Below are positions 3 through 59,134 of a stretch of 64,000 bases of DNA, piece after piece. A program made the position numbers and the translations under genes. The first letter of the stretch is position 1; every line of letters starts with the position of its first letter. The notes under the pieces were generated by a model. The model was not told where the DNA came from, searched no databases, and saw only the letters and a program-made list of their open reading frames with translations. Origin of the DNA: a virus; IMG/VR virus record IMGVR_UViG_3300045988_119787, positions 10,557-74,556 of that record; one strand, given 5' to 3'.

Positions 3-3000
3 TCCACCGGTGATGATACTTCATTGTCGGCATTGGGTCAGGCGGCATTGGGAGGATTCGAGCATGGTGCTACCACTGGTGCGATGTTCGGAGTATCGGG
101 TGCTATCATGGCTCCTTGGGTGTCAAAGTTCGGTATCACTGGCTTGGAGAAGAGCACAGGCGAGAAATGGCTGCATGGCACACAGAAACTTGGTGCTACC
201 GCCGCAGGTCTCGGCGTTGAGGCTGGGACCATGATGGTTGCCGACAATATCACTGGCGATAAGGACATTTCCTTTGGCACATGGCTTGAAGACGTGGTGA
301 TGGTGGGCGCATTCAAGGCAGGAGAGCCTAAGAATTACGCTCATATCGGAAATGCGTTGTATAATCTTACTCATAATAGCGGTGGTAATTTCGTGATTGG
401 AAAGAATACCAACGGCTCCCCTATCGCCGTGGATATTCGTCTGACTCCTGACGAGAAGAATGAATTGATTTCTTCTGCATCGGGCAAGAATCTGATGGAT
501 GCTTTCGTGAAGGTGGACCGTGCATCGAAGACAGCTCCAAGAGATTCGAAATACAAAACGGCATACACGGATTTTATGAACGACCCAGACGTTTCTCAGA
601 GCACCAAAGAGAAGGTGAATGCGGCCATGGGACTGTTTAACACGACAAGAGGTAAAAGCTACCGCAGCGTAAATGACGTGAAGAACAAACAGATTCTTGA
701 ATACACCAAGAACGGAACGCTGCTTACACGTACCTCTTATAAGAATGCCGATGAACGCCGTGCTATCCTTTACAAGCAGAAGCTTTATCGTGACAATGAC
801 GATATGATGTCGCTGATTGGCTATTCCAAGATGAAGGATATGCAGCTGACTGATGAGGACGGAAATGTTACCAGTCTGGCACTTGGCTTCCTCCGTAATA
901 ACGGCTATGACACAAGCAAGGATGTTACAGACCCGATAAACGCCCAGCTGATTAATGACTTGCGCAACCCGAAGAGTGCGCTCTATCTTGACTGGGAGAA
1001 GTATGTGGACGTTTACGGTTCGTATGGCGATCTTAAAGTAGAATCCGCAGACGTTGTTGGTGGTTTTATGGACACCTTGAAGAAGATGATCAACGACAAG
1101 GGAAACATGACGGTTGATATTGACAACATCATGCGCAAAGACCCGATGAAGCGCACCGACCAGGAGAACAAAATCTTCTATTATGTGAAGAAAGCACTCG
1201 AAGATGAGCTTTTCCCTAGCTGGAGGCCACACGCAGACCAGTCTGCCAGCCAAGGTAAGACGGTTGCCGAGGAGCATAGTCTGGGAACGGACGACCCGGA
1301 TAGCGGCGTGGTAGTTGATGAGTTGCGCAACCTTCGCAATGCCGAGCAAGCCCTTGATGCAGCGATGGATAGCAACGATGTGTTCAAGCAAACCTTTGAG
1401 AAATTGCACCAGCAGGGCTTGACACCGGCACAGATTTACGATGCACTCATTCAGAATGGATTGACCCAAGAAGAGTTAACCCCACTTGCCCAATATATCA
1501 ATGCGAACGCTAGAGTGCAGGGTATGCAGCAGGCTACTGCTGATGTCATAGAGGAAAACGTGAAGAGCTTTATTTCTGATTGGAGCTATCACGGAACATT
1601 GAACGGTCAGGCGATGAATGGCGAGCAAGCTTTGTACGTGCAAGACAGCAACGGAAGAACACTTCTTGTTGGTTCAGGTGATGTTGCCTTCGACCAGACT
1701 ACAGGTAGAGCCAAGGAAGGTAGCGGTGATATGCTTGTCTGCTTCGACCCTAACACCAGGGAAATGGTCTATGTGAAGGCAGATGAGGTTACTCTGTTTC
1801 AGAATCAGCCTATCGACCAGTTCGCTGCAGAATATCGTCAGAGATTGCAGATGAAGAACTCTGAGCCTTATAATCAGGCGGCACAGGAACAGGCGATGCA
1901 GGATGCTGCAAAGCCTCAGCAGGAGCAGGAGGCACCACAAGATAATACCACAAAATCGGAAGATAATACCACAAAAGAGGGTGATTTAACAAAAGATGAT
2001 ACCACTTTAACAAAAGTTAATACCACATCGGGCAAAGATAATACCACAAATGAGAACTTAGCACCACAAGAGCAGCCTCAACCTAGCAGAAAGTTTGCCG
2101 ATGGTTCAGATGTTCCTATGGCTACGGACAGCAAGGGAAGACCTACACCTGACTATGAGAAAATGACTCCTGAACAGAGTGCAGAGATTCTTACTGAGGA
2201 CTTCGGGGATAATGCCGAGAAGGTGGTGGACGGACAGATTCAGAAAGCAGAGAAGGCTTTGAAGGATGCCGAGAAGATGAAGGTGGACTATACCGCCGAA
2301 CCTAACGACATCATGGAGCAGGAGACTTTGAAGAACCAGACTATTGAAGCTGCCAAGAAGCAGTTGGATCACGCTCAGAATATCAAGAAGGCTATGACTG
2401 CCAAGAAGGTTGCAGAGACTGTTGGTAAGACAGAACAGACTGAGGGCGCACATGAAGCTGGTAGCGTGGCTGCACAGAAGTTTGTAAATGCACCTAGGCT
2501 TATAGGCAATAAGCGCACAAGAATGCTGCCTGACGGAGAGACCAAGATTAAGGGACACTATGAGATTGTTCCGGCTGAAAGTCTTACTCCTTCTCACGAT
2601 GTGAACAATGGTTACAAGAAATCTGAGGGATTCCCTACCGATGCTGAGGGCAGAACTGTGAATGATCGTGACTATGAACACGACAAGGCTGCTCAGCAGA
2701 ATACGGACCAGATTGCCAGGAAGTATAACGGTATGGCTATCGAGCAGGTGCCAGTGGTATCTGACGAGGGTATCGTATATGATGGCAACGGTAGAACGAT
2801 GGCAGGACAGAAGGCGGCAAAGGAAGGCACAGACGCTGAATACATCAACGACCTCTTGGAGAATGCCGAAAACTTCGGCTTCACAAGAGAACAGATTGAA
2901 CAAAGCGGTATCGAGCATCCACGTCTGGTAATGGTTACGGATGAGAGATTGCCATACGATGCGGCTACCTTCGCCAAGTTCAACCGAAACGAGAAGAAGA

Positions 3001-12000: not shown

Positions 12001-15000
12001 GCAAGGGTGAACCGGGCTTCTGGAATGGTATCAAAAACAAGGTATCTGATTTCCTTCATGAAATCGGTTATCGTATTGCTCCTAATACTAAAGATGTGAA
12101 GTATCTGCTCTGGTTGAGCAAGAACTTGCAGAAAAATCCGAATGACCCTTATTGGAAGCTGAGAGCCGAGGCGGTGAAATTCCGTCTCGACCATGATCGT
12201 GTGCCTGCTGTCGTGGCGCATGATGGTATGTTCTACGGAAATGACGGTAAGGTCCGCAGTATGGAGAGCATGACCAAGAGCGAATGGAACGAGGCTACAG
12301 ACGGACAGATTCACTTCCGTACTACCCCATCTGCCGGCACAGCACTTGACAGATACCACCGTTCGCTGGATGAGCACGGCTATATGTTCACCGAGAGCTA
12401 TATGGATAATATGCTTTCGTTGAAGAAGTTGATGAATGCGATTGTGCCAGATAAGAAGATTGAGGATATTGCTTCTTCGGAGAATCCTTATATACTGCAG
12501 AACACCATGCAGGGTGCGATGAGTGATGCGGCTCAGATGTTTGAGCGCAACGTAATGAAGCCGCTTGACAAGGCGATGGCTGGTGTGCTGGATGCCTTTG
12601 ATGGCAAGAAGGATGATGAGAAGATTAGAAACTTCAATCTCTACATGATTACCAAGCATGGTTTGGAGCGAAACAGAGTGTTCTTTGTTCGTGACTTCCT
12701 TAGACAGATGAGAATGTACGAGAAGAAGAAGCAGGATGCAGACATCTTGGAGAACCGCTGGAGTAACGAGAAGGAACGTCTGGATAACGAACTGAATGCT
12801 GGTAACATCGACCTGAAGGAGTACTACAGACAGATAGACGAGTTTATCAACAACGAAATCGACCCAGACTATAAGGCTGGCGAACACGACTATTCGGGTA
12901 TTCACGCTATACAAGAGGTAGCAAAGTCTTCTGACCCATACGATGATGCAGAGGCTATCGCTAGCGTGATGGATTCGGAAGCTAAGATGGAGAGCATCAA
13001 GAAGGGAGCTGTGAAGGACTATTGGGATAAGGTGAAGGCTGCAACCCAGTATTCGATTGACAGCGACTACAAGAATGGTATCATCAGCAAGGAGTTGCAC
13101 GGTCATGTATCTAATATGTTCAACTGGTATGTGCCTTTGAGAAAGTATGATGAGGCTACTGCAGAAGATACTTATGGCTACATTACTGAGCAGGGAGACC
13201 CGAAGAGTTACATCGGAAGCACCATCATGAGAGCAAGAGGACACAAATATCTGAGTGAGACAAATGTGCTGGCGCAGATTGGTGCGATGGGTAACAGAGC
13301 TATCAAGAACGGCGGTATGAATGCTATCCGTCAGGCTTTCGCAAGATTCGCGCGAAATAATTCGGGCAATAATCTGATTACAGAAACGAGTGTATGGTAT
13401 GAGAAGGACCCAATGACCGGTATTGTTTATGAGCGCTATCCTGATATTCCTGAGGACGCTACACCAGACGAAATCAACCAGATAGTTGCAGACTTCAATA
13501 CAGACATGAAGGCAAAGGCTGCACAGGGCTTGGCATCGAAGGTTTACCGCAGGGGCAGTATCGGCTATAAGTTCCAAAGAGCTGAGAATAAATCACAGCA
13601 TATCGTAGACGTGAAGATTGCCGGCAAGACTCATTCTTTTGTTATCAACGGAAATCCCAGAGCAGCGCAGGCATTGAATGGGTTGCTGGAGAACTCTAGC
13701 GCCAAGGGATTCATGAAACCTTTGAGCACTATTTCTAGAATGATGGCACAGCTCTGTACTTCATACAACCCTGAGTTCGTGATGAGAAACGCCTTCCGTG
13801 ATGCTGAGTTTGCTTCGAGCAACGTTACATCGAAGGAAGGTGCAAGATACGGGGCACTCTGGGCTAAGTACTACGCACAGCTGGGTCTGTATAAGGGCGC
13901 ATCGAATATCAGCTTGAAGGATTTCAGCGGTTCTACGGGTTTGGGATTGTTCGCAAAGTATCGTAACGGCACACTTGATATTTCTGACAAGGTTCAGAGA
14001 TACTTCAAGGAGTTCATGGAGAACGGCGGTGAGACTGGTTGGGTTCAGATCAAGAACATGAAGGATTGGACCAAGGAATACAAGAAAGACGTGAAGGACG
14101 AAAGAAGCAAGCTGAACAAGGGCGGTGAACTGGTACGTGATTTCTTCTTCGGTAACTTGGAGAACGTGAATGAGGTGGCAGAGAATATCGCCCGATTCAC
14201 TACTTACTGTACGAGTCGTGATTATGGACGTTCCGTTATCCGCTCTGTCTATGATGCCAAGGAAGTATCTACCAACTTCAACCGTCATGGTAGCGGTGAT
14301 GCCGTCAAGAGTTTCAAGAACGGTGAAATGACTGGAACCAAGGCTGCAAGAAGATGGGCATACGGATTTACTTCCGGCTATCTCAGACACTGCTCTATGT
14401 TCTTCAACGCTGGTATTCAGAGTACGAACCTTCTTGCGAAGAACTTGAAGAATCATCCTGTAGGAACTTCCATCAACATGCTTGCCATTCCTTTTGCACT
14501 CGGTGCGCTGGCTGCACTTGGAAACAATGTGCTGATTGCGAGTGAGGACGAAAAGGACAGAAAGGGAGTGAAGGACCCATACGGTGAACTGCCTGACTAC
14601 GTGAGAAGGAACAATCTCTGTATCTACAAGGGAGGCGGTCAGTTTATCACGATTCCGCTTGCCATCGAGTTAAGAGCTTTCTATGGCTTGGGTGACTTGG
14701 CTGCAGGCTTGACCTTCTCGCCAAACGTGAGCGGACAGAAGAATCCTTACTTAGATGCCGTGGGCTGTATGTCGCAGCTGGTTCCTGTGATGGACTATCT
14801 CGGTAACTCTTCGGCAGGCAAAGAACCGATTAACGAGACCATCAAGGCTATCTCTCCTTCTGCCCTATCTCCATTCGTTGAATGGGAGTTAAATACCGAC
14901 TGGAAGGGTGCGCCTATTGAGAGACGTGGCGACTGGAACGAAAATTCCCCTGCTTGGCAGAGAGCCTACAAGGGTATTCCTGACGGTTATATGGCTGTAA

Positions 15001-15551
15001 ACAAATGGGTGAATGCCCAGACAAACGATGTAGCCAAGGGTAACGAGGATATGCTGGGTAATAGTTTCCTGGATATGGTAACGAACCCTAGTATGCTGAA
15101 TCATTACATCGGCGGTCTTGGCGGTGGTGCTGCTACCTTTACTGAGCGTGCTATTGGTGTTGTGAAGCATGGAAATGATACGGAAACCAAGGATATTCCT
15201 TTCCTTCGCTCCCTACTCTATACGCCTAGCGAGCAAAGCAGCTTGCAGAGAACCAAGAGCAAGTGGTATAACTACAAGGACGAAATGGAAAAGACCATGG
15301 CAAATGTGGACCGTCTGAAATCCAAGAACGTTCCGATTGATAAGAGAATCACGAATATTGGGGAATATTATCACTTCCAAAACTCCAAGGAAGCTGCCAA
15401 GGTGAGAGTAATCGAGCTGGCAGAGAAACAGATGAAGCGCTGGAAGAAGATGAGGGATAAGGCTAGCGATACAGAAAGCATCAACTTCGCTAATCAGAAT
15501 ATTGATAGGATCATGATGGATGCGGTGGACGAACTGGATAGACTGGAATAA
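3..15551 (+). CDS. Giant multidomain 'polyvalent' protein (>=5175 aa; reading frame open to the window edge, so 5'-partial): ParB-like, N6-adenine MTase, Sno/SNF2-like helicase, two zincin modules, C-terminal TM segment
   Basis: Uninterrupted ORF in frame 3 ending TAA 15549-15551. No stop lies between position 3 and the TTG at 24 used by the ORF track. Catalytic motifs are listed as sub-features. Architecture matches polyvalent and DarB-like proteins of phages and conjugative elements. Confidence 0.85.
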   Translation, partial: STGDDTSLSALGQAALGGFEHGATTGAMFGVSGAIMAPWVSKFGITGLEKSTGEKWLHGTQKLGATAAGLGVEAGTMMVADNITGDKDISFGTWLEDVVMVGAFKAGEPKNYAHIGNALYNLTHNSGGNFVIGKNTNGSPIAVDIRLTPDEKNELISSASGKNLMDAFVKVDRASKTAPRDSKYKTAYTDFMNDPDVSQSTKEKVNAAMGLFNTTRGKSYRSVNDVKNKQILEYTKNGTLLTRTSYKNADERRAILYKQKLYRDNDDMMSLIGYSKMKDMQLTDEDGNVTSLALGFLRNNGYDTSKDVTDPINAQLINDLRNPKSALYLDWEKYVDVYGSYGDLKVESADVVGGFMDTLKKMINDKGNMTVDIDNIMRKDPMKRTDQENKIFYYVKKALEDELFPSWRPHADQSASQGKTVAEEHSLGTDDPDSGVVVDELRNLRNAEQALDAAMDSNDVFKQTFEKLHQQGLTPAQIYDALIQNGLTQEELTPLAQYINANARVQGMQQATADVIEENVKSFISDWSYHGTLNGQAMNGEQALYVQDSNGRTLLVGSGDVAFDQTTGRAKEGSGDMLVCFDPNTREMVYVKADEVTLFQNQPIDQFAAEYRQRLQMKNSEPYNQAAQEQAMQDAAKPQQEQEAPQDNTTKSEDNTTKEGDLTKDDTTLTKVNTTSGKDNTTNENLAPQEQPQPSRKFADGSDVPMATDSKGRPTPDYEKMTPEQSAEILTEDFGDNAEKVVDGQIQKAEKALKDAEKMKVDYTAEPNDIMEQETLKNQTIEAAKKQLDHAQNIKKAMTAKKVAETVGKTEQTEGAHEAGSVAAQKFVNAPRLIGNKRTRMLPDGETKIKGHYEIVPAESLTPSHDVNNGYKKSEGFPTDAEGRTVNDRDYEHDKAAQQNTDQIARKYNGMAIEQVPVVSDEGIVYDGNGRTMAGQKAAKEGTDAEYINDLLENAENFGFTREQIEQSGIEHPRLVMVTDERLPYDAATFAKFNRNEKKTQSNTEQAVAKAKTLTSDEVGAIVAEIEGNGSLDAFFNNSKAINDLVKTLVDKGIIGQNEVAQMMDSPERLSAQGREYVKNLLLGSIFKPETIRMLGIDSTVKNKAINAIRSVMDNMKLGEFSLRDEIDQAIQLLYEARRGGNKVDTLLRTPSMFGEDAAKRYSSISQMMALALEGKVSDFRDLLDEYNRIAAARNTGEGDVFGEAPTKPELIKEFMDFKKWQDYGTGHSENERGNDVSGIEEPQQEASGGNEPAEAERPRVEEPEVGSLPLLPKEENPDPQFNPIEAAAAEFKKEHPLTEEEIMKADVDDLSKDMALDYQNGEVTDDLHRAIYESIYAKRKGLKAEPKVETPKSEPSADPMEAFKNAAEGFEKEKKGKAEQPKKPQQTADDAAVAASNKKVNDLWDMLKNAGKDEMSASFVGLNSRQLEVLPKLVSAMAENAYLRIKRGMHNLEDVVKEMRKEFAPASKIFKKEDVDAIYEQMMNIRYRDGEQRMSLKEWADYYEKTSPKHQENLVGDSKSAEERKMAEKKFIDVVNLQLGFKHKFNGIVELRKIAERLGLKDIKDTDLQELAETAIVKRARGIASSESTNNAEKFKRIKTLYENQPSLNQRDSERVMKQQYSTPAPYAFLADMYVKGNGKVIESALEPSAGNGMLTIGLPKDKVHVNDIDDTRLLNLNRQGFGKVTSQDGTQPFNVKPVDIVITNPPFGSATPKEYDGYKISSLEGQMAINALESMKDDGRAAIIIGGKTEYAKNGSLNPKDKAFLGYLYSHYNVEDVINVDGGLYAKQGTSYPTRIILINGRRLDENAFPPVKDKARAEAVKDYDELYKRIEDDILRGERMDSSIGGETRSAQPELDKQGAAGTPKERVRAGERGGSKPDGERESDLFDSTSVSGTHDDLENQRGTEPREDGGLSGGDTGTDRTGTEPSQSEGATAGTNEQRGAGSGGAGRNDAQPSTDEPASAGSGSGPRGQLQRVDKSVRGLSTEKVTYTPKSGNPFTLKAVMPADQQEAVNKNLEKLGDADQFLVDELGYNDKDDLYSHLAAEQVDSVALALQQAKKGNAFIIGDMTGIGKGRQAASLIRYAKKQGQVPVYFTKTAGLLSDVYRDLVDIGSPELRPFVFGSAKEAAITDSDGNVVFSLPSKSEVKRVLDYIEKNGKLPEEYDYVLTTYSQVSNGVYEFDEDGNRKERKLAKGKSFGAAALSGQKRRDAIEKLMGNAYLILDESHTAGGNSGQGNYFQHIIQKAKNVTFFSATFAKRPDNMPIYALRTAMNEGGMKSSDLIDAVKRGGATLQEIMSQTLTQCGQMIRRERDMTGVTIDWKAIDDPERVKEQREQYDSIIGLFNDIINFQKKYVSSYVDERNIELADIQSTMDIKKGTESLGIKNQPFASKAFNTVQQVLLSLKAKSAAERAIDYLKQGMKPVIALNNTNESQTGNLALGEEMDAPDLGTSLKKGLEGTLRYTQKDAKDNSESGYFKLEDLGEEAVKAYHELEKKIEQTSTGLSLSPIDVIKNELQKAGYKVGELTGRQTEFVYNDNGTVTKVKRADTDKKKLARDFNDGKIDALILNKSAATGISLHASSKYKDQKKRVMIVAQQQLDVNDEVQMRGRIDRTGQVARGAYEYVVSLIPAEQRLLMMFKAKLKSLDANTTSSQKSKFNEMEVADITNKYGDKVVKEYMAEHLDLYARMADPFGWEKTYGDDLSRINPQNLVVSGGGVGDGEAGADASKLLGRMALLRVNEQEKMLQEIGELYANEIQRLNEMGENDLEITELPLKAKTIHKEVWKQGAEPGGDNAFADNTYIEKVNMAILKKPMKASEVKASQEGLTGGKTWDEYKTEKKTAVKEYFGQKIANETQRYEERAVKAATKAKEKYIKDGKKGQEKSGMTDEQIEKNAEYQYETIYKQEKDKLDDVVKNLKEKAEMFDRVLDTFDTNQTFVLPTDMNNPNELSGFGNSYGRLIDIKITDNFSPNASSVSFATLDGRRKITFPIAGKVGAGENKADIIGAIDNMTKQAIGMGDSHLRVLNQNFDNWDRLTSNESRKNGYIVTGNLMQALVDSKDQGLGGQLVKYTTDTGEVKTGILMPDRFDPKGLTTDAPINSVTEKFELSSWHGGIDEVTSSDGEVKVKRIDNNRGYFYELRVPKSKAKGGKYFMDEDLLKLVNGNNFETRGNNMLAEFKPEQLKPVLDRLSKMGVKVQEERKTSEDEGTHFREDRGLQYSKTDTKDVKKGRIIPEDVDKNVSSQIEKKFDSTIKDIEEHTEDRDKSLFADNLESALDEFSDLGRSVIEYYKNDYERKVEKLSGQHTGGHLGGKNDGKGNKGSYLLQYYKTVLAVADRELAYRDARAKNLRETWGLQPGGAFTLGAVERIFKETNRDKGKAELFQRVLDINKRLGVNIKVSAESPKKRSGEADTNRNIDLYIDGLTKTMAPDYAAPTIMLHEMIHEVTMGAINLVKKGKAEGILTPKQIEGVKTILKIYDKVKDDKERFKEEPYGLTDAYELTAQMADSRQRKAMDLSIWDRVMNAAHEFARRGDRSILQRVKDAIKKLFEVSDKDKMDKAINDIMDDFNETIDDISMNEIEQDGFAYKVTDKDELDRLNKEKTFRMYSGMQEVDGKLYSPMAAIIDGKRTDATEIGAWMGADERPDLVKNGKFTLVKTDKNKGVGEGDVPAAYNPYMHTSTSMMNDQFTGAYARGNIKVVEWEIPESEKTSGYRAEGAKDAVGLVPWHSGSVNSLLPKDRQRQVMLSRWRKAVRVVPDSEVAESIAEQLKGTGLAIPWNVVTPNQVRELAKLGVPITTVESGRQAPETKEKFLQQMAELEQEFPQAKFVNVKMSKDAFKVWGKDGGTKFRTDHGESSYPTSSVESHVEKVAQKTGAKVNMVSSVDEITNKAAKAAIEEGRKITGWYDEKTGEVHLYMPNIHDRYTAEKTIWHEVVGHKGMRELFGEDRFNQFLRDVWYDLDKPENAELKKLVDEERRYNPLNIYDAIEEGIARLAEDGKGEPGFWNGIKNKVSDFLHEIGYRIAPNTKDVKYLLWLSKNLQKNPNDPYWKLRAEAVKFRLDHDRVPAVVAHDGMFYGNDGKVRSMESMTKSEWNEATDGQIHFRTTPSAGTALDRYHRSLDEHGYMFTESYMDNMLSLKKLMNAIVPDKKIEDIASSENPYILQNTMQGAMSDAAQMFERNVMKPLDKAMAGVLDAFDGKKDDEKIRNFNLYMITKHGLERNRVFFVRDFLRQMRMYEKKKQDADILENRWSNEKERLDNELNAGNIDLKEYYRQIDEFINNEIDPDYKAGEHDYSGIHAIQEVAKSSDPYDDAEAIASVMDSEAKMESIKKGAVKDYWDKVKAATQYSIDSDYKNGIISKELHGHVSNMFNWYVPLRKYDEATAEDTYGYITEQGDPKSYIGSTIMRARGHKYLSETNVLAQIGAMGNRAIKNGGMNAIRQAFARFARNNSGNNLITETSVWYEKDPMTGIVYERYPDIPEDATPDEINQIVADFNTDMKAKAAQGLASKVYRRGSIGYKFQRAENKSQHIVDVKIAGKTHSFVINGNPRAAQALNGLLENSSAKGFMKPLSTISRMMAQLCTSYNPEFVMRNAFRDAEFASSNVTSKEGARYGALWAKYYAQLGLYKGASNISLKDFSGSTGLGLFAKYRNGTLDISDKVQRYFKEFMENGGETGWVQIKNMKDWTKEYKKDVKDERSKLNKGGELVRDFFFGNLENVNEVAENIARFTTYCTSRDYGRSVIRSVYDAKEVSTNFNRHGSGDAVKSFKNGEMTGTKAARRWAYGFTSGYLRHCSMFFNAGIQSTNLLAKNLKNHPVGTSINMLAIPFALGALAALGNNVLIASEDEKDRKGVKDPYGELPDYVRRNNLCIYKGGGQFITIPLAIELRAFYGLGDLAAGLTFSPNVSGQKNPYLDAVGCMSQLVPVMDYLGNSSAGKEPINETIKAISPSALSPFVEWELNTDWKGAPIERRGDWNENSPAWQRAYKGIPDGYMAVNKWVNAQTNDVAKGNEDMLGNSFLDMVTNPSMLNHYIGGLGGGAATFTERAIGVVKHGNDTETKDIPFLRSLLYTPSEQSSLQRTKSKWYNYKDEMEKTMANVDRLKSKNVPIDKRITNIGEYYHFQNSKEAAKVRVIELAEKQMKRWKKMRDKASDTESINFANQNIDRIMMDAVDELDRLE
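1941..2050 (+). repeat. Degenerate tandem repeat (GATAATACCACAAAA-like, about 5 copies) encoding DNTTK-type low-complexity linker
   Basis: gataataccacaaaa occurs at 1941-1955 and 1962-1976, with diverged copies to ~2050. Protein reads DNTTKSEDNTTKEGDLTKDDTTLTKVNTTSGKDNTTNE. Confidence 0.7.
2550..3000 (+). other. ParB/Srx-like N-terminal domain within giant ORF
   Basis: HYEIVPAESLTPSHDVN...VVSDEGIVYDGNGRTMAGQKAAKEG. The DGxxRxxA-type arginine motif is typical of ParB-like nuclease/NTPase domains. Confidence 0.6.
4860..5412 (+). other. N6-adenine DNA methyltransferase domain (gamma-type motif order) within giant ORF
   Basis: Motif I LEPSAGNGMLTIG (~4944). Motif IV NPPF at 5118-5129 (VITNPPFG). 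Confidence 0.8.
5520..5940 (+). other. Disordered Gly/Ser/Glu/Arg/Thr-rich linker between MTase and helicase
   Basis: GERMDSSIGGETRSAQ...GTDRTGTEPSQSEGATAGTNEQRGAGSGGAGRNDAQPSTDEPASAGSGSGPRG; no hydrophobic core. Confidence 0.6.
6150..7900 (+). other. Strawberry-notch/SNF2-like superfamily-2 helicase core within giant ORF
   Basis: P-loop GDMTGIGKGRQAA (GIGKGR 6219-6236). DExH box LILDESHTAGG (DESH 6678-6689). Motif V-like KSAATGISLHAS. Motif VI QMRGRIDRTGQ (~7824). Confidence 0.8.
10326..10340 (+). other. Zincin motif HEMIH (first metallopeptidase-like module of giant ORF)
   Basis: PTIMLHEMIHEVTMG; codons cat gaa atg att cat. Confidence 0.55.
11802..11819 (+). other. Zincin motif HEVVGH (second metallopeptidase-like module, polyvalent-protein type)
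   Basis: ITGWYDEKTGEVHLYMPNIHDRYTAEKTIWHEVVGHKGMRELFG. Confidence 0.6.
14470..14540 (+). other. Predicted transmembrane segment near C-terminus of giant ORF
   Basis: SINMLAIPFALGALAALGNNVLIA hydrophobic stretch flanked by charged residues. Confidence 0.45.
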
Positions 15552-20992: not shown

Positions 20993-23900
20993 TTATGATA
21001 ATGAATTAATTAAATTATCAACCAAAGGAAGTCGCTCCTCTAACCATTTCTTTACACGATATATGCTATCATAATGTCCAAGATAGAATGGTCTTTCTGA
21101 ATAGTATTTTGTTACAGGAGACACGTTGGTGCAATCCTTAATAACCTTAAATGCAAGATGCTCGAATACTACATAACTACCAGCAGTATAAGTTGTATCT
21201 TTATTCCATACCTTCTGACCAGAAGCTGTGATTCCTGCATCAGTATATGTACATGGGGTATAGTATTCTGTGTTTATGTTACTATCCCTATGACAAGGAG
21301 ATTGCTTCCATCTATCATACTCCTGCTTAAAATCATCTGTTCCAATTCTAGAACACCAATCAGTAAGAAGGTTAATGATGTTGTCAGCAGTAAGTATAGC
21401 CTTTCTGAGTTCAGAATATCTTTTCTTCAACTCTGTTGCAAAATACTTATATACCCAATATGTTCCACCATATCCCTTTTTGTTTCCCATCAAGCTGATT
21501 GGCTCCATAAAATTATCTTTTGGTGAGAAGCTGAAAGTGCCATCAAAGAAATCTCCAAACACACCATCTAGGTCATAAGGATATACACCAAATCTTACTC
21601 CATTCCAAGAACCAATTTGCCAATTCTTACCAAATCCATCATAGTTAGCTATAACGTTTGAGAAACAAAGATAATCAATAATGCCATCTACATCATATCT
21701 GTTATCAATTTCATTCTTTATATCATCTTTGGTCTTGCTGCCAGCTTCTATTTGTGCTTCTACTTCAGTAAGTTCTGTATCATATTTACTTAGGGCAATG
21801 ATATACTTTTTTACTTGAAATGATAGTTCCATATTCTTATTGGAAGCATCATAACTTTCAGATGTATCATCTATAAGCTCCTGCACTTTGTTTTTGTCTG
21901 CATCATATTTACTACCATCCATACAGATAAGAGACTTAGGGTTTCTTATCTCAAATCCCTGCTCACTCATCGGATTCCATGCAGTACTTGGCAATGTACC
22001 ATTTGCAGAAAATAGGTTTTGTCTAATAAAACCATCCAAGTGTATATTCTCAGCTTTATTCTTTGACATTTTCATATTGTCACGATGTTTCTTTAATTGC
22101 CAAGAAAAAACACCTAAGAACTCTCCTTCGAAATAGACTATGCAAGGAAATCCATCAGGAAAAGTTCTTGCTTCATCACCAAAGTCATAAGCAATTTCTG
22201 CATTTTGATTTATGCCATAAGATGCAGATGTGGAATCTTTATAGTATCTCTTATAAGCCCTGTCATTATGCAATCCACGACTTTTTGATATTTCATCAAA
22301 CAATTTATAGCAAACAACTCCTGCACCTCTAAAGGCATCAGTATAATATGCCTTAAAATGAAAACTGTCTTGTGATACCCAATTACCGATTTTTACTTTG
22401 CAGGTATCATCACCAATCCATTCATCATTGCATATAACTACTGCAAAATTCTTCTTTGCCAAATAGAGTGAACTACTTCCTTGCGCATTGAGAATTACAC
22501 GTTTCTTAAAGTATATGCCTTCTAATGTCCATACTTCTATCCATGCATGTAGATTCTGGGTTTTAGATGTTGGCATGTTTGATACTCCTGAAATGTTAAC
22601 TATAGCCTTTCTTGGTTGATTTGGGATTCTTATATGATCATCATTGCTCATGTCACAAGCATTGATGTTATATCCTTTACTTTTCAAATATTTAATGAAA
22701 TCATTTCCGTCTTCAACATGGAGGCTGGCAACACGCATTTTTTTCTCAACCTTTGTACCATCTTTTTCACGGAAACCAAGAATTTTATCATCAGAATCAG
22801 TTATCAATTCCATGCGTTCCTCTTGGTCTTCAAAGGATTTTTTTGAATTTGCTACATCTTCATTGATAAGTGTTTTACCTACCTCCTTATTAACCTTTGT
22901 ATCAAACGTTTCTGATTTCAAGTCATACACATAATGGCTTCCATCATTGTATGTAGCAGAAAGAATCCTTCCGTCTGCATCTTTCTCTACTGCAAGGTAC
23001 TCAGGATTCTCCTGCAAAGAGAAAATATCAAGAAGTTCTTGTAGATTGGTATCTATTGTACCTACCTTCTCCTGCAATGATGCAAGGTCTGATTGAAGCT
23101 GAGAGATAACTTTCTTCAAGGCATTGACTGCATGAATCTCACCAATGACCTCTCCGTCTCTTCTAAGACCAAGTAATACTTTATCGTCAGTAGTAACCCA
23201 AGCAGCAAAGTATTCTTCGCTCTGAATGACGTGATACATTTCATTAAGAGGATAATATGGCTTGCCAGTTGCTCTGTAGAAGCCAAACAGTACCTTATCA
23301 TCTGAATCCACTATAGCTTTGAGAAATTCTTCATTCTCAATTATTCTAAAGCACTCTTTTACTTCATCTTCAATGAGTGATTTGCCTTCTTCCTTGTCAA
23401 CCTTTGTATCTTGAAGATTCTTGATGTCCTCTCCAAACTTAGTATTGAGACTATTGAGGTTTGCAAGAATGCTTGTAAGGGTCTGCGTATTCTCAATCTC
23501 AGCAAAGAACTTCTTCAACTCATTCATGGTATCAATGACATTTGTTGTGTCCTCATCACCCATGATGGTTGCTACTCTCTCTGCAAGAAGAGTTACTTGT
23601 GACTGCAATCTGTCCTCTACAGCACTTGTCTTACCAAATACTGGAGTGGCATCCCATTGGATACCAAAGAGAAGCTTGTCCTCTGCGTCCACCTTGGCAA
23701 AGATGAACTCTTCATTCTGAATGTAGCGGAAAGGAGTTTCTACTACAGTTCCTTCCTCATCCTTGATAGCTACTTTATCTACTACTTCCTGCATTGTGCC
23801 AAGAGTCTGCTCTGTCTGCTCTCTAGAATCATCAGCCTTCTGGGCTGCTTCATTGGCTTTTAATGTAGCTTCTTCTGCCTTGGTTGTGGCAGCTTTAGCT

Positions 23901-24265
23901 TGCTCTGTAGCCTGAGCAGATGCTGTTGTTGCATTGGTTGCTAACTGGGTAGCATTGTCAGCCGCTTCCTTTGCTGCTGTGGCTGCTGCTGTAGCTTGCT
24001 TTGCATTTTCTGTAGCTTGATCAGCTTTGGCGGTAGCTTCTTTTGCCTTCTCGGTTGCCTCATTTGATGCAGTTACAGAATTATTTATCTCTTGCCGGAT
24101 AGACGGGGCAAGCTTTTGGGCTGTAACCGCACCGTCAGCCAACTTCTCGGAAGTAATATTGCCGTCACGAATCTTGTCTTTTGTAACAGATTGGTCATTA
24201 TAATCATCTGTTTTCATCATTGGCACCATACCACCTATTTTTGTATCTTGTCTAAATGTAGGCAT
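20993..24265 (-). CDS. Tail fibre protein: N-terminal fibre motif, Ala/Thr/Lys coiled coil, five internal repeats, CotH-like C-terminal domain
   Basis: ITSEKLADGAVTAQKLAPS fibre-type motif. ATEKAKEATAKADQATENAKQATAAATAAKEAADNATQ... coiled coil. C-terminus NYDGFGKNWQIGSWNGVRFGVYPYDLDGVFG resembles the CotH core. Confidence 0.7.
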   Translation of the reverse strand: MPTFRQDTKIGGMVPMMKTDDYNDQSVTKDKIRDGNITSEKLADGAVTAQKLAPSIRQEINNSVTASNEATEKAKEATAKADQATENAKQATAAATAAKEAADNATQLATNATTASAQATEQAKAATTKAEEATLKANEAAQKADDSREQTEQTLGTMQEVVDKVAIKDEEGTVVETPFRYIQNEEFIFAKVDAEDKLLFGIQWDATPVFGKTSAVEDRLQSQVTLLAERVATIMGDEDTTNVIDTMNELKKFFAEIENTQTLTSILANLNSLNTKFGEDIKNLQDTKVDKEEGKSLIEDEVKECFRIIENEEFLKAIVDSDDKVLFGFYRATGKPYYPLNEMYHVIQSEEYFAAWVTTDDKVLLGLRRDGEVIGEIHAVNALKKVISQLQSDLASLQEKVGTIDTNLQELLDIFSLQENPEYLAVEKDADGRILSATYNDGSHYVYDLKSETFDTKVNKEVGKTLINEDVANSKKSFEDQEERMELITDSDDKILGFREKDGTKVEKKMRVASLHVEDGNDFIKYLKSKGYNINACDMSNDDHIRIPNQPRKAIVNISGVSNMPTSKTQNLHAWIEVWTLEGIYFKKRVILNAQGSSSLYLAKKNFAVVICNDEWIGDDTCKVKIGNWVSQDSFHFKAYYTDAFRGAGVVCYKLFDEISKSRGLHNDRAYKRYYKDSTSASYGINQNAEIAYDFGDEARTFPDGFPCIVYFEGEFLGVFSWQLKKHRDNMKMSKNKAENIHLDGFIRQNLFSANGTLPSTAWNPMSEQGFEIRNPKSLICMDGSKYDADKNKVQELIDDTSESYDASNKNMELSFQVKKYIIALSKYDTELTEVEAQIEAGSKTKDDIKNEIDNRYDVDGIIDYLCFSNVIANYDGFGKNWQIGSWNGVRFGVYPYDLDGVFGDFFDGTFSFSPKDNFMEPISLMGNKKGYGGTYWVYKYFATELKKRYSELRKAILTADNIINLLTDWCSRIGTDDFKQEYDRWKQSPCHRDSNINTEYYTPCTYTDAGITASGQKVWNKDTTYTAGSYVVFEHLAFKVIKDCTNVSPVTKYYSERPFYLGHYDSIYRVKKWLEERLPLVDNLINSLS
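22741..23720 (-). repeat. Five copies of a ~28-aa motif EE[FY]xxAxxDxDDK[VIL]L.G....G inside the fibre gene
   Basis: NEEFIFAKVDAEDKLLFGIQWD; NEEFLKAIVDSDDKVLFGFYRATG; SEEYFAAWVTTDDKVLLGLRRDG; NPEYLAVEKDADGRILSATYNDG; ERMELITDSDDKILGFREKDG. Confidence 0.7.
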
Positions 24266-57295: not shown

Positions 57296-57305
57296 ACCTT
57301 ATTAT

Positions 57306-57497
57306 TTATAATGTATCATACTCGCCTTCCTCTCTTCCCATATCTGCTGAGAGATTCTTGATTCGAGAGTTAAGCATATTGATTTTTCGTAGACACAGCT
57401 CGAAGTGCCTTAGTGGGCACCACGGATTGTGCTCCAGTTCTTTATATATTTCGTTCACCCGATCTTGATAGGACTGGGTTGAGAATAATTTCAGCAT
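57306..57497 (-). CDS. Small hypothetical protein, first ORF after noncoding island
   Basis: 63-aa ORF. Confidence 0.4.
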   Translation of the reverse strand: MLKLFSTQSYQDRVNEIYKELEHNPWCPLRHFELCLRKINMLNSRIKNLSADMGREEGEYDTL

Positions 57498-57525
57498 ACG
57501 CTATTGTTTTTGAAGTTAAGATAAA

Positions 57526-57551
57526 CCTGCCTATCCTCACGGACCAGCAGG
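57526..57551 (-). promoter_or_regulatory. Conserved-loop hairpin, copy 3 (CCTGC-UGGUCCGUGAGGAUAG-GCAGG on minus strand)
   Basis: Read directly. Loop differs from copy 1 at two transitions. The stem sequence is different but still complementary. Confidence 0.55.
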
Positions 57552-57640
57552 AGAGTAAAACTTTCAATTTATGTACAATAATAGTTGCCGCTGCAACAAT
57601 TTTCAGATTTCATGGAAAAAACCAACTAAACAAATAGAGT

Positions 57641-57748
57641 TGCAGAAGTGGGACTCGAACCCACGACTAGTTGCACGGTTTGATAAGAATATGCTAAGGA
57701 TTTATACATCTGTTACGTGCTTGCTCTAACCAACTGAGCTATTCTGCA
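57641..57748 (-). tRNA. tRNA-like gene with a 58-nt expanded arm replacing the anticodon arm and variable loop (108 nt, no encoded CCA)
   Basis: Minus strand TGCAGAA-TA-GCTC-AGTTGGTTA-GAGC-[58 nt]-GTGGG-TTCGAGT-CCCAC-TTCTGCA. Perfect 7-bp acceptor stem with canonical D and T arms. No 5-bp/7-nt anticodon stem-loop fits anywhere in the 58 nt. Confidence 0.6.
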
Positions 57749-58127
57749 AAGTTGCGGCATCATGCGCTACCATGAATTTAAGAGCCATGCTCACCGCTAG
57801 AAATGCAACAAAATTTGTTTCAACTATCAATTATGGCTAATCAACATCACACACGTGCGTTGCATTTCCTATATAAGAACTTAAATATATTCGCCTTTTT
57901 CCAATATGTCAAAGAACAAATGCCCACAAACTGGCAATGGGATTGTTTGAGAATCTGTTACATATTTAAAATGAAGGTGTTGGTAGAATGCTCGACCACA
58001 ACATTTCCTTATGGTTCGTGGCGCCTGAAAAGTATCAACGCAAACAACTATATTTCGCCACTGGTCTTTACCGCTCTTTTGTCACCGTTTCATTCGGATT
58101 TAATATAATAACAATATTTCAAAACTA

Positions 58128-58203
58128 TGGAGGCGCCAAGCGGAATCGAACCGCCGACCTCTGCAAACCTCCTTGCAGCGCTCTACCACTGAGCTAAGGC
58201 GCC
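58128..58203 (-). tRNA. tRNA-like gene with encoded CCA whose 'anticodon' hairpin displays the SD sequence (CUGCAA-GGAGGU-UUGCAG)
   Basis: Minus strand GGCGCCT-TA-GCTC-AGTGGTA-GAGC-G-CTGCAAGGAGGTTTGCAG-AGGTC-GGCGG-TTCGATT-CCGCT-TGGCGCC-T-CCA. The loop is 6 nt (6-bp stem) or 8 nt (5-bp stem), never 7, and has no U33. Confidence 0.65.
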
Positions 58204-58207
58204 AAGA

Positions 58208-58235
58208 TCACTCCTATTCTCACGAACCAGAGTGA
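58208..58235 (-). promoter_or_regulatory. Conserved-loop hairpin, copy 1 (UCACUC-UGGUUCGUGAGAAUAG-GAGUGA), 4 nt upstream of tRNA-like 2
   Basis: Read directly from the sequence. Confidence 0.55.
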
Positions 58236-58297
58236 AGTGTAATAACTAAAATACATTTTTTAAGAATGAAATAAAATTGTATATTATGCTTTGAACC

Positions 58298-58334
58298 CAC
58301 TCTTTCAAAACCTCCACCCTGCTCACGCAGAGTG
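58298..58334 (-). promoter_or_regulatory. Diverged hairpin copy 2 (CACUC-27-nt loop containing CGUGAG and GGUGGAGGUU-GAGUG)
   Basis: Shares GTTATT..TTCACTCTG..CGTGAG with copy 1 on the minus strand. Confidence 0.4.
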
Positions 58335-58382
58335 AAGGAAAATAACGCTTAGAATTTTTATCTAAAAGCCTAACGGCTGTCA

Positions 58383-58595
58383 TCATTGCTCTTCTACCAG
58401 TTCGGGGTACTTCTTTACGAGGATTCCCCCATATCGGTTGGTTGCAACATCACGTATATTAACAGCCAACTCACTGTTCGTTTTGAATGCTATTGCAGCA
58501 TAAACTGCCGCATCGCAGCAGCCTACCGTCTTTGCTATTTTAGCTATTTTTGATTTTCTTATCAAAATTTTCGGCTTAAAAACTATTTTATCCAT
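58383..58595 (-). CDS. Cro-like small HTH protein
   Basis: 70 aa. SKIAKIAKTVGCCDAAVYAAIAF is HTH-like. Divergent from the CI-like gene. Confidence 0.5.
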   Translation of the reverse strand: MDKIVFKPKILIRKSKIAKIAKTVGCCDAAVYAAIAFKTNSELAVNIRDVATNRYGGILVKKYPELVEEQ

Positions 58596-58605
58596 ACTTT
58601 TTTAT

Positions 58606-58613
58606 TATCTTTG
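58606..58613 (+). promoter_or_regulatory. -7 box TATCTTTG (rightward), left arm of 11-bp inverted repeat TATCTTTGCAC
   Basis: Matches TAnnTTTG. 11 nt from the Cro-like ATG and about 150 nt upstream of the CI-like ATG. Confidence 0.5.
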
Positions 58614-58670
58614 CACACGTAAACTATTCGATGATAAGGAAACGAAGATTCGTTGTCCAAATCACGAGTG

Positions 58671-58678
58671 CAAAGATA
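58671..58678 (-). promoter_or_regulatory. -7 box TATCTTTG (leftward), right arm of inverted repeat
   Basis: Plus-strand CAAAGATA. The arm GTGCAAAGATA spans 58668-58678. Confidence 0.5.
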
Positions 58679-58762
58679 CATAATTATAGACACACAACCA
58701 AGAATATAGGCAATATTTTATATTATATTTATCTATTTACACATTTATAAACATTAAGAGAT

Positions 58763-59134
58763 ATGGAAGGATTAAGGGATAGAATCAATGAAATAAAAGA
58801 CTATTACAGACTGTCTAACAGAGGGTTTGCAGAAGCTGTAGGTGGCAAACCAGCTGCTACAAACAACTATCTGAACGGTACAAAGGAACCTTCTCTAGAG
58901 TTTGTAGACAGAATATTGTCTACCTATGTAGACATTTCTGCAGAATGGCTTCTTCGAGGTGAAGGTTCGATGTTTAAGGAAGACAAACCAACCGATGAAG
59001 CACTCTTGAAAGAGTTGTCAGAAGCCAAGGTCAAGCTGCTGGTACAAGAGGGCATCACCAAAGAGTTGCGTGATATGCTCCTGGAGAAGAACAACGGCAA
59101 GATTGCAGATGAGCGCAAGAGTCTTGTAGAATAA
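58763..59134 (+). CDS. XRE/CI-like HTH transcriptional regulator
   Basis: RLSNRGFAEAVGGKPAATNNYLNGTKEPSLEFVDRILSTYVDISAEWLLRGEG is a typical Bacteroidales XRE-type repressor. Coiled-coil C-terminus. Confidence 0.65.
   Translation: MEGLRDRINEIKDYYRLSNRGFAEAVGGKPAATNNYLNGTKEPSLEFVDRILSTYVDISAEWLLRGEGSMFKEDKPTDEALLKELSEAKVKLLVQEGITKELRDMLLEKNNGKIADERKSLVE

Follow-up and report, generated by a model that had tools for sequence, protein, structure and literature searches.

A covarying GUGA-capped RNA stem-loop recurs between genes and ahead of tRNAs in gut Bacteroidales phages

Results

The window analyzed here is a stretch of 64,000 nucleotides from a viral genome (IMG/VR record IMGVR_UViG_3300045988_119787), and all positions given below refer to it. 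A gene of 70 amino acids in Cro-like position (58383..58595, minus strand), assigned by a PHROG match (phrog_16858) and by gene order, heads the leftward transcript that carries the hairpins described here and has a homologue in L028, a genome syntenic with the window. A helix-turn-helix can be read by eye in its sequence, while Pfam gave no match. On the plus strand lies the gene for a CI-like repressor (58763-59134). Between the two genes we noticed two TATCTTTG boxes, one pointing leftward (58671..58678, minus strand) and one pointing rightward (58606-58613, plus strand). Both were assigned as Bacteroidetes-type -7 promoter boxes by comparison with TAnnTTTG, which we take to be the Bacteroides -7 consensus, so that two predicted promoters face each other.

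The non-coding stretch downstream of the 70-amino-acid gene contains two tRNA genes, both on the minus strand. The first is a tRNA-like gene (58128..58203) detected by ARAGORN and by the Rfam tRNA model (52.4 bits), with an encoded CCA and an anticodon loop of 8 nt (AGGAGGUU); its relative in the genome L096 has a 7-nt loop and is called as tRNA-Leu GAG. The second (57640..57749; Rfam tRNA 47.6 bits, with a 51-nt insert state) carries an insertion of ~38 nt in the anticodon loop, is kept in L096, and has a similar insert-bearing counterpart in L028. The first protein gene past this stretch is an ORF of 63 amino acids taken from the ORF list (57306..57497, minus strand), homologues of which occupy the equivalent position in L028, L096 and L107. 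Pfam and PHROG scans of the ~45 ORFs of the window recognized no RNA-binding, RNase or antiterminator protein and no N-, Q- or NusG-like protein, although small, fast-evolving proteins may escape such scans.

Two hairpins on the minus strand flank the tRNA genes. Copy 1 (58208..58235; read from 58235 to 58208) is UCACUC-UGGUUCGUGAGAAUAG-GAGUGA, followed by a 4-nt spacer, UCUU, and then by the tRNA-like gene, which starts at 58203 (sequence 3' of the hairpin: UCUUGGCGCC). Copy 3 (57526..57551; read from 57551 to 57526) is CCUGC-UGGUCCGUGAGGAUAG-GCAGG; it lies 88 nt 3' of the insert-bearing tRNA and 28 nt 5' of the ATG (57497) of the 63-amino-acid ORF (3' sequence: UUUAUCUU). Reading the letters bears out the sequences, strand and positions that an earlier note on this DNA had reported, including the placement of copy 1 4 nt ahead of the tRNA-like gene and of copy 3 near the first early ORF. 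That note had also described the 16 nt inside the stems as a conserved loop. The minimum free energy fold instead shows a helix with a GUGA tetraloop: above the lower stem (UCACUC/GAGUGA in copy 1, CCUGC/GCAGG in copy 3) the 16 nt form U.G, a G.A mismatch, G.U, U-A, a second U-A that is C-G in copy 3, and a C-G pair closing the tetraloop. The inner helix is thus UUC/GAA in copy 1 and UCC/GGA in copy 3, and the two transitions that had been counted as separate loop changes are real but are the two sides of one base pair, a single compensatory change from U-A to C-G. The folds have energies of -13.1 kcal/mol (copy 1) and -15.6 kcal/mol (copy 3); for copy 3, none of 200 shuffled sequences was equally stable. 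A simple terminator scan flagged neither hairpin.

Covariance models of the family recovered both copies in searches of the whole window. With filters off, model R1 scored copy 1 at 39.9 bits (E 1e-9) and copy 3 at 38.8 bits (E 2e-9), model R2 gave 41.6 and 38.6 bits, and the E values for the two copies overall range from about 1e-9 to 1e-7; both are genuine and well above chance level. Each lies on the gene strand and has the other features that define the family in R1 and R2, namely five or more pairs in the lower stem, a G facing an A, the G.U, the three pairs above and a GNRA loop. Copy 1 together with the same tRNA was found identical in L096 and L107. In L028, where the corresponding non-coding stretch has seven copies within 1.3 kb, the orthologue of copy 3 precedes the homologous ORF on a different stem, CCCUUUC/GAAAGGG.

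A third copy had been proposed at 58334-58298 on the strength of a CACUC/GAGUG pairing. That pairing is not the best fold. The minimum free energy structure is a perfect 12-bp hairpin with a GUGA tetraloop, CCUUCACUCUGC-GUGA-GCAGGGUGGAGG (58311..58338, minus strand, read from 58338 to 58311; -21.1 kcal/mol, z -4.4), which lies 3' of the 70-amino-acid gene and is followed by UUUU (58310-58307) and GAAAGAG. It lacks the G.A/G.U step, scores 9.7 bits (E 4.5) with R1 and has no R2 match at E<=5. This "copy 2" looks like a terminator and falls outside the family, so the window holds two copies and not three. Its tail, UUUUGAAAGAG, is similar to the tails of two true members in L028.

Copies 1 and 3 belong to a large family found in hundreds of gut Bacteroidales phages. 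The exact core occurs at no fewer than 119 IMG/VR loci on dozens of unrelated yet complementary lower stems, with 5-10 complementary flanking pairs in 111 of 127 exact-core matches. The covariation score is 0.665, compared with 0.154 in shuffles (0 of 500 reach the observed value) and 0.13-0.15 when the partners are slid. A doubly compensated variant of the inner helix, UCU/AGA, was found at 120 or more loci, with stems in 60 of 66 unique copies, whereas the half-changed controls occur at 2 and 10 loci and have stems in none; UCC/GGA and UUU/AAA were found as further variants. The compensatory changes prove the fold. Selection on RNA structure, which the earlier note had inferred from the differing yet complementary stems, is therefore backed by IMG/VR covariation at very large scale, and the outcome it named as speaking against its view, that no additional homologues would covary, clearly did not occur.

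The helix as a whole comprises 11-14 pairs with one 1x1 G.A mismatch. Its lower stem of 5-9 pairs is free in sequence, and two of the three upper Watson-Crick pairs covary freely. The first five lower-stem pairs comprise 269 Watson-Crick pairs, 18 G.U and no A.C; the presence of G.U together with the complete absence of A.C identifies the sense strand as the folding strand. The closing pair is usually U.G, with C-G, A-U and G-C also found. The core consensus is GGUYNGUGANRAUA, in which the G.U wobble (109 of 109) and A15 are invariant. All 207 strict unique matches have a 4-nt GNRA loop, which is GUGA in 199 (96%), and a few 5-nt loops (GUGAA, GUGAG, GUGAU) appear among the covariance-model matches. 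The conserved positions are thus the non-Watson-Crick, destabilizing ones (G.A, G.U, U.G), while the Watson-Crick pairs vary, a pattern of conservation that argues for recognition and not stability.

Nearly every copy is intergenic. Flanking ORFs of at least 130 amino acids are mostly on the same strand as the hairpin (76:12 downstream, 55:11 upstream), and most copies have a co-oriented tRNA or ORF 2-80 nt downstream. In 45 of the 207 unique copies (about 22%) a tRNA begins 2-13 nt 3' of the hairpin, the commonest spacing being 2 nt. The [hairpin + tRNA] units look modular, and tRNAs without a hairpin also exist in the arrays. Many other copies lie 16-70 nt 5' of an ATG or 10-60 nt 3' of a stop codon. 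One copy, in L091, is 7 nt 5' of a type III hammerhead that passes the Rfam threshold, and hammerhead cores follow copies in L092 and L114. The number of copies per locus varies: two in one operon of the window, seven in L028, eight in the tRNA array of L021. The surrounding genes are convergent, tandem or divergent. Some copies, with a U tract, sit in 5' UTRs right behind divergent promoters.

Downstream of the stem, U is enriched at positions +1 to +5 only (49-69% against a background of 33%), and beyond this we found no conserved flank. At least 5 U in 6 nt follow the stem in 40 of 139 copies (about 30%), leaving ~70% without a good U tract; in the only five clear convergent-gene cases the tracts are strong, with a mean of 6.2 U in 8 nt. 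A UUUU[G/C]AAAGA tail occurs in ~10 of the 139 (~8%), mostly at related loci, and a unit of the rrn boxB-boxA type was rejected on this count. Upstream, motifs resembling the -7 box end 0-24 nt 5' of the hairpin in 119 cases, compared with 98 +/- 6 in composition-matched shuffles (~3 sd); this association is weak because T-rich composition explains most of it. The 370-kb contig L008 has a region of 1 kb devoid of ORFs that contains two copies, both on the other strand from the genes on either side; TAAATTTG precedes one of them and TAAACTTG the other, and U6-8 follows both.

Among the 80 genomic records listed, 27 of the 32 stem-bearing copies are in Bacteroidales assemblies, whereas the stemless matches come from unrelated phyla. 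Some host-chromosome copies are in prophages, next to a Mu-like transposase in L137 and to Ant in L181; in L166, L168 and L146 the neighbors are uninformative or metabolic. Of the cultivable carriers, Bacteroides sp. KFT8 (NZ_CP178209.1; L197) has two exact-core matches, one of which is flanked by a 6-bp stem, while B. faecis MAJ27 (L166) and B. congonensis (L193) have one stem-bearing copy apiece. No recurring protein family, recombinase or HUH-type gene was found near the copies, and a tie to a particular neighboring gene was accordingly rejected. A blastn search of the window region against 50,697 phage records gave no match, and the two commonest IMG/VR types matched one unannotated 6-kb fragment, or nothing, among cultured phages. 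Rfam 15 gave no family overlapping either window hairpin at gathering score, none at E<=10 over 57300-58700, and nothing overlapping the seven L028 hairpins at E<=1. Literature searches by sequence string and by keywords found no description of the family, which is apparently new. Together, we conclude with high confidence that the family is a cis-acting RNA stem-loop made from the gene strand, a general-purpose intergenic signal of Bacteroidales phages and prophages.

Discussion

Several known elements resemble the hairpin in part. The earlier note had compared it with lambdoid nut/boxB sites or processing signals. In lambda, N binds boxB, a hairpin of ~15 nt whose 5-bp stem is conserved in sequence and whose pentaloop is GNRA-like; boxA lies ~8 nt from it, and each early operon has a single promoter-proximal site. 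As at nut, an early transcript carries a phage RNA hairpin 3' of a Cro-like gene, with a GNRA-type loop and a presumed protein reader. The family differs in its helix of 11-14 pairs with a free lower half, its G.A/G.U module and its 4-nt loop, and in having no adjacent boxA, up to 8 copies per array, many of them by tRNAs, and no N-like protein found. The boxA-like TTGTTCTTTGACA of the window, at about 57922-57910, is separated by ~290 nt from copy 1 and by ~360 nt from copy 3. Judged by these sequences, nut/boxB appears to fit poorly, and the idea of a processing signal seems to fit the contexts better.

RNase III sites of T7 (R0.3, R1.1 and others) are helices of ~20 bp (two helical turns) or more with an asymmetric internal loop; a host enzyme reads them although they seldom occur in host genes, and the upstream RNA keeps a protective hairpin. 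Like the family, they are general-purpose intergenic hairpins of the gene strand whose interior non-Watson-Crick positions are conserved, and they occur in leaders, at the ends of operons and between cistrons. The family's 11-14 pairs fall short of ~20 bp, however, and it has a 1x1 G.A mismatch and a conserved tetraloop. In Rnt1p substrates an AGNN tetraloop is the ruler for a cut at the base of the stem. This system and IRE/IRP share with the family a conserved loop with an irregularity fixed 4-5 pairs below it and a stem that is otherwise free, but they are eukaryotic and have other loop sequences, so the likeness is one of architecture only. An intrinsic terminator is a stable hairpin with about 7-9 nt of U-rich sequence directly behind it. 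Some copies, at the ends of convergent operons or with U's after the stem-loop (~30%), look similar; the family differs in its conserved apex, its invariant destabilizing pairs, and the position of most copies directly before genes or tRNAs and not at unit ends.

Other identities were rejected. The apex recalls what we take to be features of SRP RNA domain IV (GGUCC-GNRA-GGA), the sarcin-ricin loop, the tRNA T-arm and the Ro site of Y RNA; Rfam has no match at the hairpins, and the positions that would be non-canonical in those RNAs covary here as Watson-Crick pairs. A promoter of the N4 type, a DNA hairpin used by a virion RNA polymerase, was set aside since the 5175-amino-acid ORF is a polyvalent ParB/Sno-helicase/LPD38 protein and the wobble pairs are on the sense strand. 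The lack of relationship among the lower stems led us to reject a mobile repeat or a mimic of CRISPR repeats as well.

In Bacteroides, NusA-enhanced, hairpin-stabilized pauses recruit NusG paralogues (PMC11685472). The opsX element, a multipartite DNA element of ~40 bp present once per capsule operon, forms a non-template hairpin, YGCGNAGCR, at a consensus pause in the operon leader, is preceded by a pause hairpin, and recruits the NusG paralogue UpxY (PMC11685472). Like the family, opsX/UpxY belongs to this host clade, and there and at the LoaP leader hairpin nascent leader hairpins modulate elongation (PMC11685472), but the core of the family is unrelated to that of opsX, and the family is phage-borne, intergenic and multi-copy.

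Our tentative explanation, the best that joins these observations although we hold it at somewhat less than even confidence, is that a factor recognizes the hairpin, which serves phage transcripts as a boundary or protects their ends. A trans-acting factor would read a two-point surface made up of the tetraloop and, 4-5 pairs below it, the G.A/G.U step, and the hairpin would mark and protect RNA ends within polycistronic phage transcripts. Where a tRNA follows at 2-13 nt, RNase P cleavage would give an upstream RNA that ends in the hairpin; cutting by a hammerhead, or by an RNase within the U-rich tail, would have the same outcome. At copies with a U tract, a stop there would make the hairpin the transcript 3' end, and with a promoter just upstream it would stand at or near an RNA 5' end. 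Copy 1 would then be a structured 5' leader of the tRNA-like gene, and copy 3 a boundary hairpin ahead of the first delayed-early protein gene. A binding factor, with end protection or processing as its consequence, is what we infer, end protection being read from position alone. A stable hairpin 2 nt from an RNase P site might hinder cleavage and not help it, and the family may have no single function, given that ~30% of the copies resemble ordinary terminators.

A more specific proposal, which we regard as possible but rather less probable than a boundary hairpin, is that the stem-loop is the recognition element of an RNA-handling system specific to Bacteroidales and their phages, acting through a ruler-type endonuclease or RNA-binding protein or as a decoy RNA. 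A ruler-type reader would recognize GUGA and the G.A/G.U step and set the ends of tRNA leaders and intercistronic RNAs independently of the sequence at the cut site; a decoy would be a small RNA freed from tRNA leaders that titrates a host factor.

Slightly further down in probability, and unlikely in our judgment, is a regulated attenuator or antitermination element, a broader form of the nut/boxB idea in which RNA polymerase pauses or terminates at the hairpin and a phage or host factor bound at the apex gives read-through, or is loaded from the apex onto the polymerase, thereby timing the expression of tRNAs and delayed-early genes. Both window copies are on the leftward early transcript that runs from the Cro-like gene to the NinG, Ant, RecT and replication genes, polymerase has to cross the stretch holding the seven L028 copies, and the U enrichment directly after the stem, with the U tracts of some copies behind divergent promoters, is consistent with such a role, as are the Bacteroides pauses on record that recruit NusG paralogues (PMC11685472). 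Attenuation is difficult to reconcile, however, with up to 8 serial copies within tRNA arrays, with tRNAs whose G+C-rich 5' ends follow after 2-7 nt and leave no usable U tract, or with the scarcity of the UUUU[G/C]AAAGA tail and the absence of any conserved adjoining boxA. The opsX consensus is likewise absent, and the scans of the window turned up no protein resembling N, Q or NusG.

It is improbable that the hairpin is a product in its own right, a small RNA that RNase P frees from tRNA leaders or that has a promoter and terminator of its own, and that titrates a host protein as a decoy or sponge. The layout of the L008 copies does predict RNAs of ~40 nt that are the hairpin alone, the tight spacing to tRNAs would free a hairpin whose 3' tail is too short for exonucleases, and some phages have many copies per genome; most copies, on the other hand, are inside mRNA leaders or between ORFs, from which release is not obvious, and the promoter assignments are consensus matches only.

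A little more doubtful still is that these are ordinary intrinsic terminators whose apices are alike merely through common descent or the stability of a C-GNRA-G loop. No single context is commoner than a stem-loop with U's behind it; the five convergent-gene copies with their strong U tracts are of this kind, and so is "copy 2" of the window, which likewise has a GUGA loop. Yet a terminator would not be expected to conserve its destabilizing positions while its Watson-Crick pairs vary, most copies have no good U tract, and efficient termination would silence the downstream gene wherever a copy stands 2-13 nt ahead of a tRNA or, within a short intergenic gap, 16-35 nt ahead of an ATG; recent common descent does not account for identical apices across hundreds of phages, as the lower stems are unrelated. 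Finally, a single-stranded DNA signal on the hairpin strand, for replication, recombination or a cassette boundary, is very improbable: strand-specific G.T tolerance would also suit a hairpin extruded from one DNA strand and the [hairpin + tRNA] units seem modular, but the copies are strongly co-oriented with genes, a GNRA tetraloop with a wobble-rich module is what RNA typically shows, the surroundings have no recurring recombinase or HUH-type gene, and recent cassette copying has left no trace, since all stems within one array differ.

Bacteroidales phages dominate the human gut virome. To our knowledge, RNA-level control in these phages has hardly been explored, and their hosts, as far as we know, lack Hfq and ProQ and rarely use Shine-Dalgarno sequences. 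Here one short motif with unusually clean covariation marks intergenic boundaries and tRNA leaders in hundreds of phages and prophages. It can guide the annotation of transcription units and tRNA cassettes, and its ~30 nt can serve as a bait for finding its reader; it also offers a testable way into how these phages time or process the expression of tRNAs, suppressor tRNAs included. For RNA engineering in Bacteroides it seems a compact and portable part. Should the hairpin indeed be the recognition element of an RNA-handling system restricted to the Bacteroidales and the phages that infect them, a single RNA signal would be common to hundreds of gut phages that are not otherwise related.

A hairpin with a paired 16-nt module

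Copy 1 (58235-58208, minus strand) reads UCACUC-UGGUUCGUGAGAAUAG-GAGUGA and copy 3 (57551-57526, minus strand) CCUGC-UGGUCCGUGAGGAUAG-GCAGG. As the earlier note had read, the two stems differ yet are each complementary, and a tRNA-like gene (58203-58128) begins 4 nt past the end of copy 1; the ATG of a 63-aa ORF (57497-57306) lies 28 nt past the end of copy 3. The central 16 nt, previously taken for a loop, are themselves paired. Folding demonstrated the order U.G, G opposite A, G.U, U-A, U-A and C-G, capped by a GUGA tetraloop, with free energies of -13.1 (copy 1) and -15.6 kcal/mol (copy 3). The two loop transitions described between the copies are both present, but because the "loop" is paired they fall on opposite sides of a single base pair, C-G in copy 3 where copy 1 has its second U-A.

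With filters off, the covariance model R1 scored copy 1 at 39.9 bits (E 1e-9) and copy 3 at 38.8 bits (E 2e-9), and the broader model R2 scored them at 41.6 and 38.6 bits. The CACUC/GAGUG stem proposed for a third, diverged copy is mis-paired: the best fold there is a perfect 12-bp hairpin, CCUUCACUCUGC-GUGA-GCAGGGUGGAGG (58338-58311, -21.1 kcal/mol), followed by UUUU. With R1 this hairpin reached 9.7 bits (E 4.5), and it was absent from the R2 matches at E<=5. These searches of the 64-kb window gave no further match. The third copy may be a decayed relative that has lost its former G.A/G.U step. The tail UUUUGAAAGAG of this hairpin (58307-58338, minus strand) is common to two true members of L028, a contig related to the window (10745-10776 and 9880-9911, minus strand), each of which heads a duplicated unit of ~70 nt.

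Covariation across the family

An exact IMG/VR scan for the core TGGTYCGTGAGRATAG yielded at least 119 loci. Among the exact-core matches listed, 111 of 127 are flanked by 5-10 consecutive complementary pairs, formed by dozens of unrelated stem sequences. Across 56 unique instances, pairing is 95-100% at the five lower-stem positions adjoining the core, with all four Watson-Crick types represented, and the covariation score was 0.665, compared with 0.154 +/- 0.016 in shuffles (0/500) and 0.13-0.15 when the partners were slid. The inner helix, tested across the population, provides cleaner evidence still. A variant changed on both sides, TGGTCTGTGAAGATAG (UCU/AGA), occurs at 120 loci or more, with stems in 60 of 66 unique copies, whereas the half-changed 16-mer controls number 2 and 10 loci and are flanked by two pairs at most. 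These controls set the real chance level of a 16-mer in this collection at ~2-10 matches.

Covariance-model searches added further inner helices (UCC/GGA and UUU/AAA), closing pairs (U.G, C-G, A-U and G-C) and loops (GCGA, GGGA, GAGA and a few of 5 nt). All of 109 diverse members keep the G.U wobble and have an A facing position 2; of 207 strict matches, 199 have a GUGA loop and 179 a G at position 2. The sets of 139, 207 and 109 sequences were chosen for pairing, so that percentage paired is in part by construction, and the unbiased evidence lies in the flanking stems of the exact-core matches, the wobble count and the half-changed controls. Selection on RNA structure, as the earlier note had proposed, thus holds in further homologues, and we regard the hairpin structure as well established.

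All unique exact-core matches, taken with no pairing filter, gave 269 Watson-Crick, 18 G.U and 0 A.C combinations in the first five lower-stem pairs, and on the opposite strand the U.G and G.U conserved in the core would turn into mismatches; therefore only the shown strand folds. Most flanking ORFs of 130 aa or more share the strand of the hairpin (76:12 downstream, 55:11 upstream). This co-orientation, the near-absence of copies within ORFs and the GNRA loop point to a transcript-level element, and a signal acting in single-stranded DNA is very unlikely.

Rfam 15 has no family that overlaps the hairpins of the window or L028, and no description was found in the literature by sequence string or keywords. 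In form and arrangement the family departs from nut/boxB, T7-type RNase III sites and Bacteroides opsX, and fits intrinsic terminators only partially. Its closest working likeness would be either T7 intergenic processing hairpins or the IRE, a two-point protein-binding hairpin; it belongs to none of these groups.

The carrier phages and their RNA genes

The window is a temperate-type phage using host RNA polymerase. A CI-like repressor (58763-59134, plus strand) is accompanied by a leftward series of a 70-aa Cro-like gene, NinG, Ant, dUTPase, SbcC-like, RecT and a replication initiator; portal and terminase genes are present. Between the CI-like and Cro-like genes, two Bacteroidetes-type -7 boxes (TATCTTTG) at 58606-58613 (plus) and 58671-58678 (minus) point towards each other, and the predicted transcripts would overlap by ~45 nt, a layout resembling the face-to-face switches of P2 and 186. 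A 5175-aa ORF (24-15551, plus) with ddrB-ParB (ParB-like), Strawberry-notch-type helicase (AAA_34, Helicase_C_4) and LPD38 domains is a "large polyvalent protein", a type known from phages and conjugative elements. Amid the structural genes lies a protein of 1090 aa (20993-24265, minus) that has a CotH kinase-like domain.

L096 and L107 are near-identical relatives of the window. The diverged L028 is syntenic (integrase, CI-like, Cro-like, non-coding stretch, 63-aa ORF, NinG, dUTPase) and has seven family members against two in the window. Ahead of the 63-aa ORF the hairpin is orthologous, with different lower stems (CCCUUUC/GAAAGGG in L028, CCUGC/GCAGG in the window). Among 80 records listed from species-representative genomes, Bacteroidales-labelled assemblies (Bacteroides, Prevotella, Muribaculaceae, Paludibacteraceae and other taxa) hold 27 of the 32 copies with stems of at least five pairs, whereas stemless matches spread over unrelated phyla, as chance predicts. 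Some genomic copies are clearly prophage-borne (Mu-like transposase, Ant) and a few have uninformative neighbours.

The tRNA-like gene past copy 1 (58128-58203, minus) encodes CCA. Its anticodon loop, AGGAGGUU, is 8 nt long and was read as a 4-nt anticodon, "gagg"; the L096 and L107 counterparts lack one T and were identified as tRNA-Leu(GAG). The additional base could reflect a frameshift-suppressor-like variant, a pseudogene or a sequencing error. Insertions of ~18-64 nt, much smaller than group I introns, lie in or beside the anticodon loop of several tRNA genes in the window (57640-57749, minus), L028 (~10080-10180 and 10477-10631, minus), L025, L029 and L038. The window insert is kept in L096, and its UUCUUAUCAAAC recurs in L028, in the second tRNA-like gene there. 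Between the two tRNA genes of the window, the non-coding stretch at ~57750-58128 (minus) is conserved in L028, with a covarying stem (GUGGCG...CGCCAC versus GUGGCAG...CUGCCAC) and the invariant block GCATGGCT.TTAAATTC.TGGTAGCGCA. It also contains an rrn/nut boxA-like block, TTGTTCTTTGACAT, which doubles as a near-perfect TTGACA-17-TATATT; Rfam gave a single weak sub-threshold match, DUF2693 RNA (19.8 bits). This stretch is probably another structured RNA.

Genomic contexts and candidate functions

In 45 of 207 unique hairpins a tRNA of one of many anticodons starts 2-13 nt past the stem, most commonly at 2 nt. In the tRNA array of contig L021, hairpins are found in the longer spacers, right up against the following tRNA; other tRNAs are directly consecutive. 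One hairpin lies 7 nt ahead of a type III hammerhead that reaches the Rfam threshold (L091, 857-913, minus), and hammerhead cores CUGAUGAG...CGAAAC follow hairpins in L092 (~3900-3975, minus) and L114 (~7020-7070, plus). The same phage RNA gene clusters hold a RAGATH-1 hammerhead (L020, 5649-5733, plus) and a permuted tmRNA (L114, 12111-12325, plus). In one phage group (L001, L002, L025, L043, L150, L189, L193 and relatives) a U/G-rich, C-poor block (GUUUUAUUUUGUGUUUGUGUU and variants) lies 10-40 nt upstream of the hairpin-tRNA unit, with TTTGTG in 22 and TGTGTT in 21 upstream regions and in 0 downstream.

Many copies lie 16-70 nt ahead of an ATG or 10-60 nt past a stop codon, and some fill a 70-100-nt gap within an operon; no protein family recurs among the neighbours. 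The main rival to the boundary role that we favour below is a regulated attenuator or antitermination element. The early-operon position speaks for it, as does L028, where RNA polymerase has to pass seven copies. The serial copies within tRNA arrays speak against it, and with neither an adjacent boxA nor an antiterminator recognised by PHROGs or Pfam among ~45 window ORFs we consider it unlikely.

Bacteroidetes -7-like boxes ending 0-24 nt upstream are somewhat commoner than in composition-matched shuffles (119 versus 98 +/- 6). In L008, a 370-kb phage contig, two copies (11360-11730, plus) fall within a kilobase that has no ORFs and run antisense to the genes on either side; one has the -7-like box TAAATTTG 7 nt upstream and the other TAAACTTG ~30 nt upstream. 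These two and a third at ~5954 share the stem GAGATACA/UGUAUCUC and a U-rich tail, AU6-8. The pair may be stand-alone RNA genes of ~40 nt, which suggest a hairpin released as decoy RNA, an improbable role for the family.

Around the copies, genes are arranged in tandem (27), convergently (5, with strong U tracts) or divergently (7). U makes up 49-69% of positions +1 to +5, compared with 33%, at least five U in 6 nt follow 40 of 139 copies, and the 20 nt upstream are T-rich. Plain terminators would account for the U-tract subset only and are a slightly poorer candidate than the decoy.

A loop with an irregularity at a fixed distance below is the classic two-point protein-binding design, and here the irregularity lies 4-5 pairs beneath the loop. 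The non-Watson-Crick positions are conserved while the ordinary pairs vary; this pattern argues for recognition over mere stability. We rate the family as a phage cis-acting RNA hairpin signal. Since it occurs in very different phages and beside very different neighbours, at sites expected to become RNA ends, our tentative first choice is a factor-recognised boundary or end-protecting element. Such a hairpin would sit where RNA ends arise, ahead of RNase P sites and ribozymes, at U tracts and after likely promoters, and, with such short spacers to the tRNAs, the 3' tail remaining on the upstream RNA would be too short for exonucleases.
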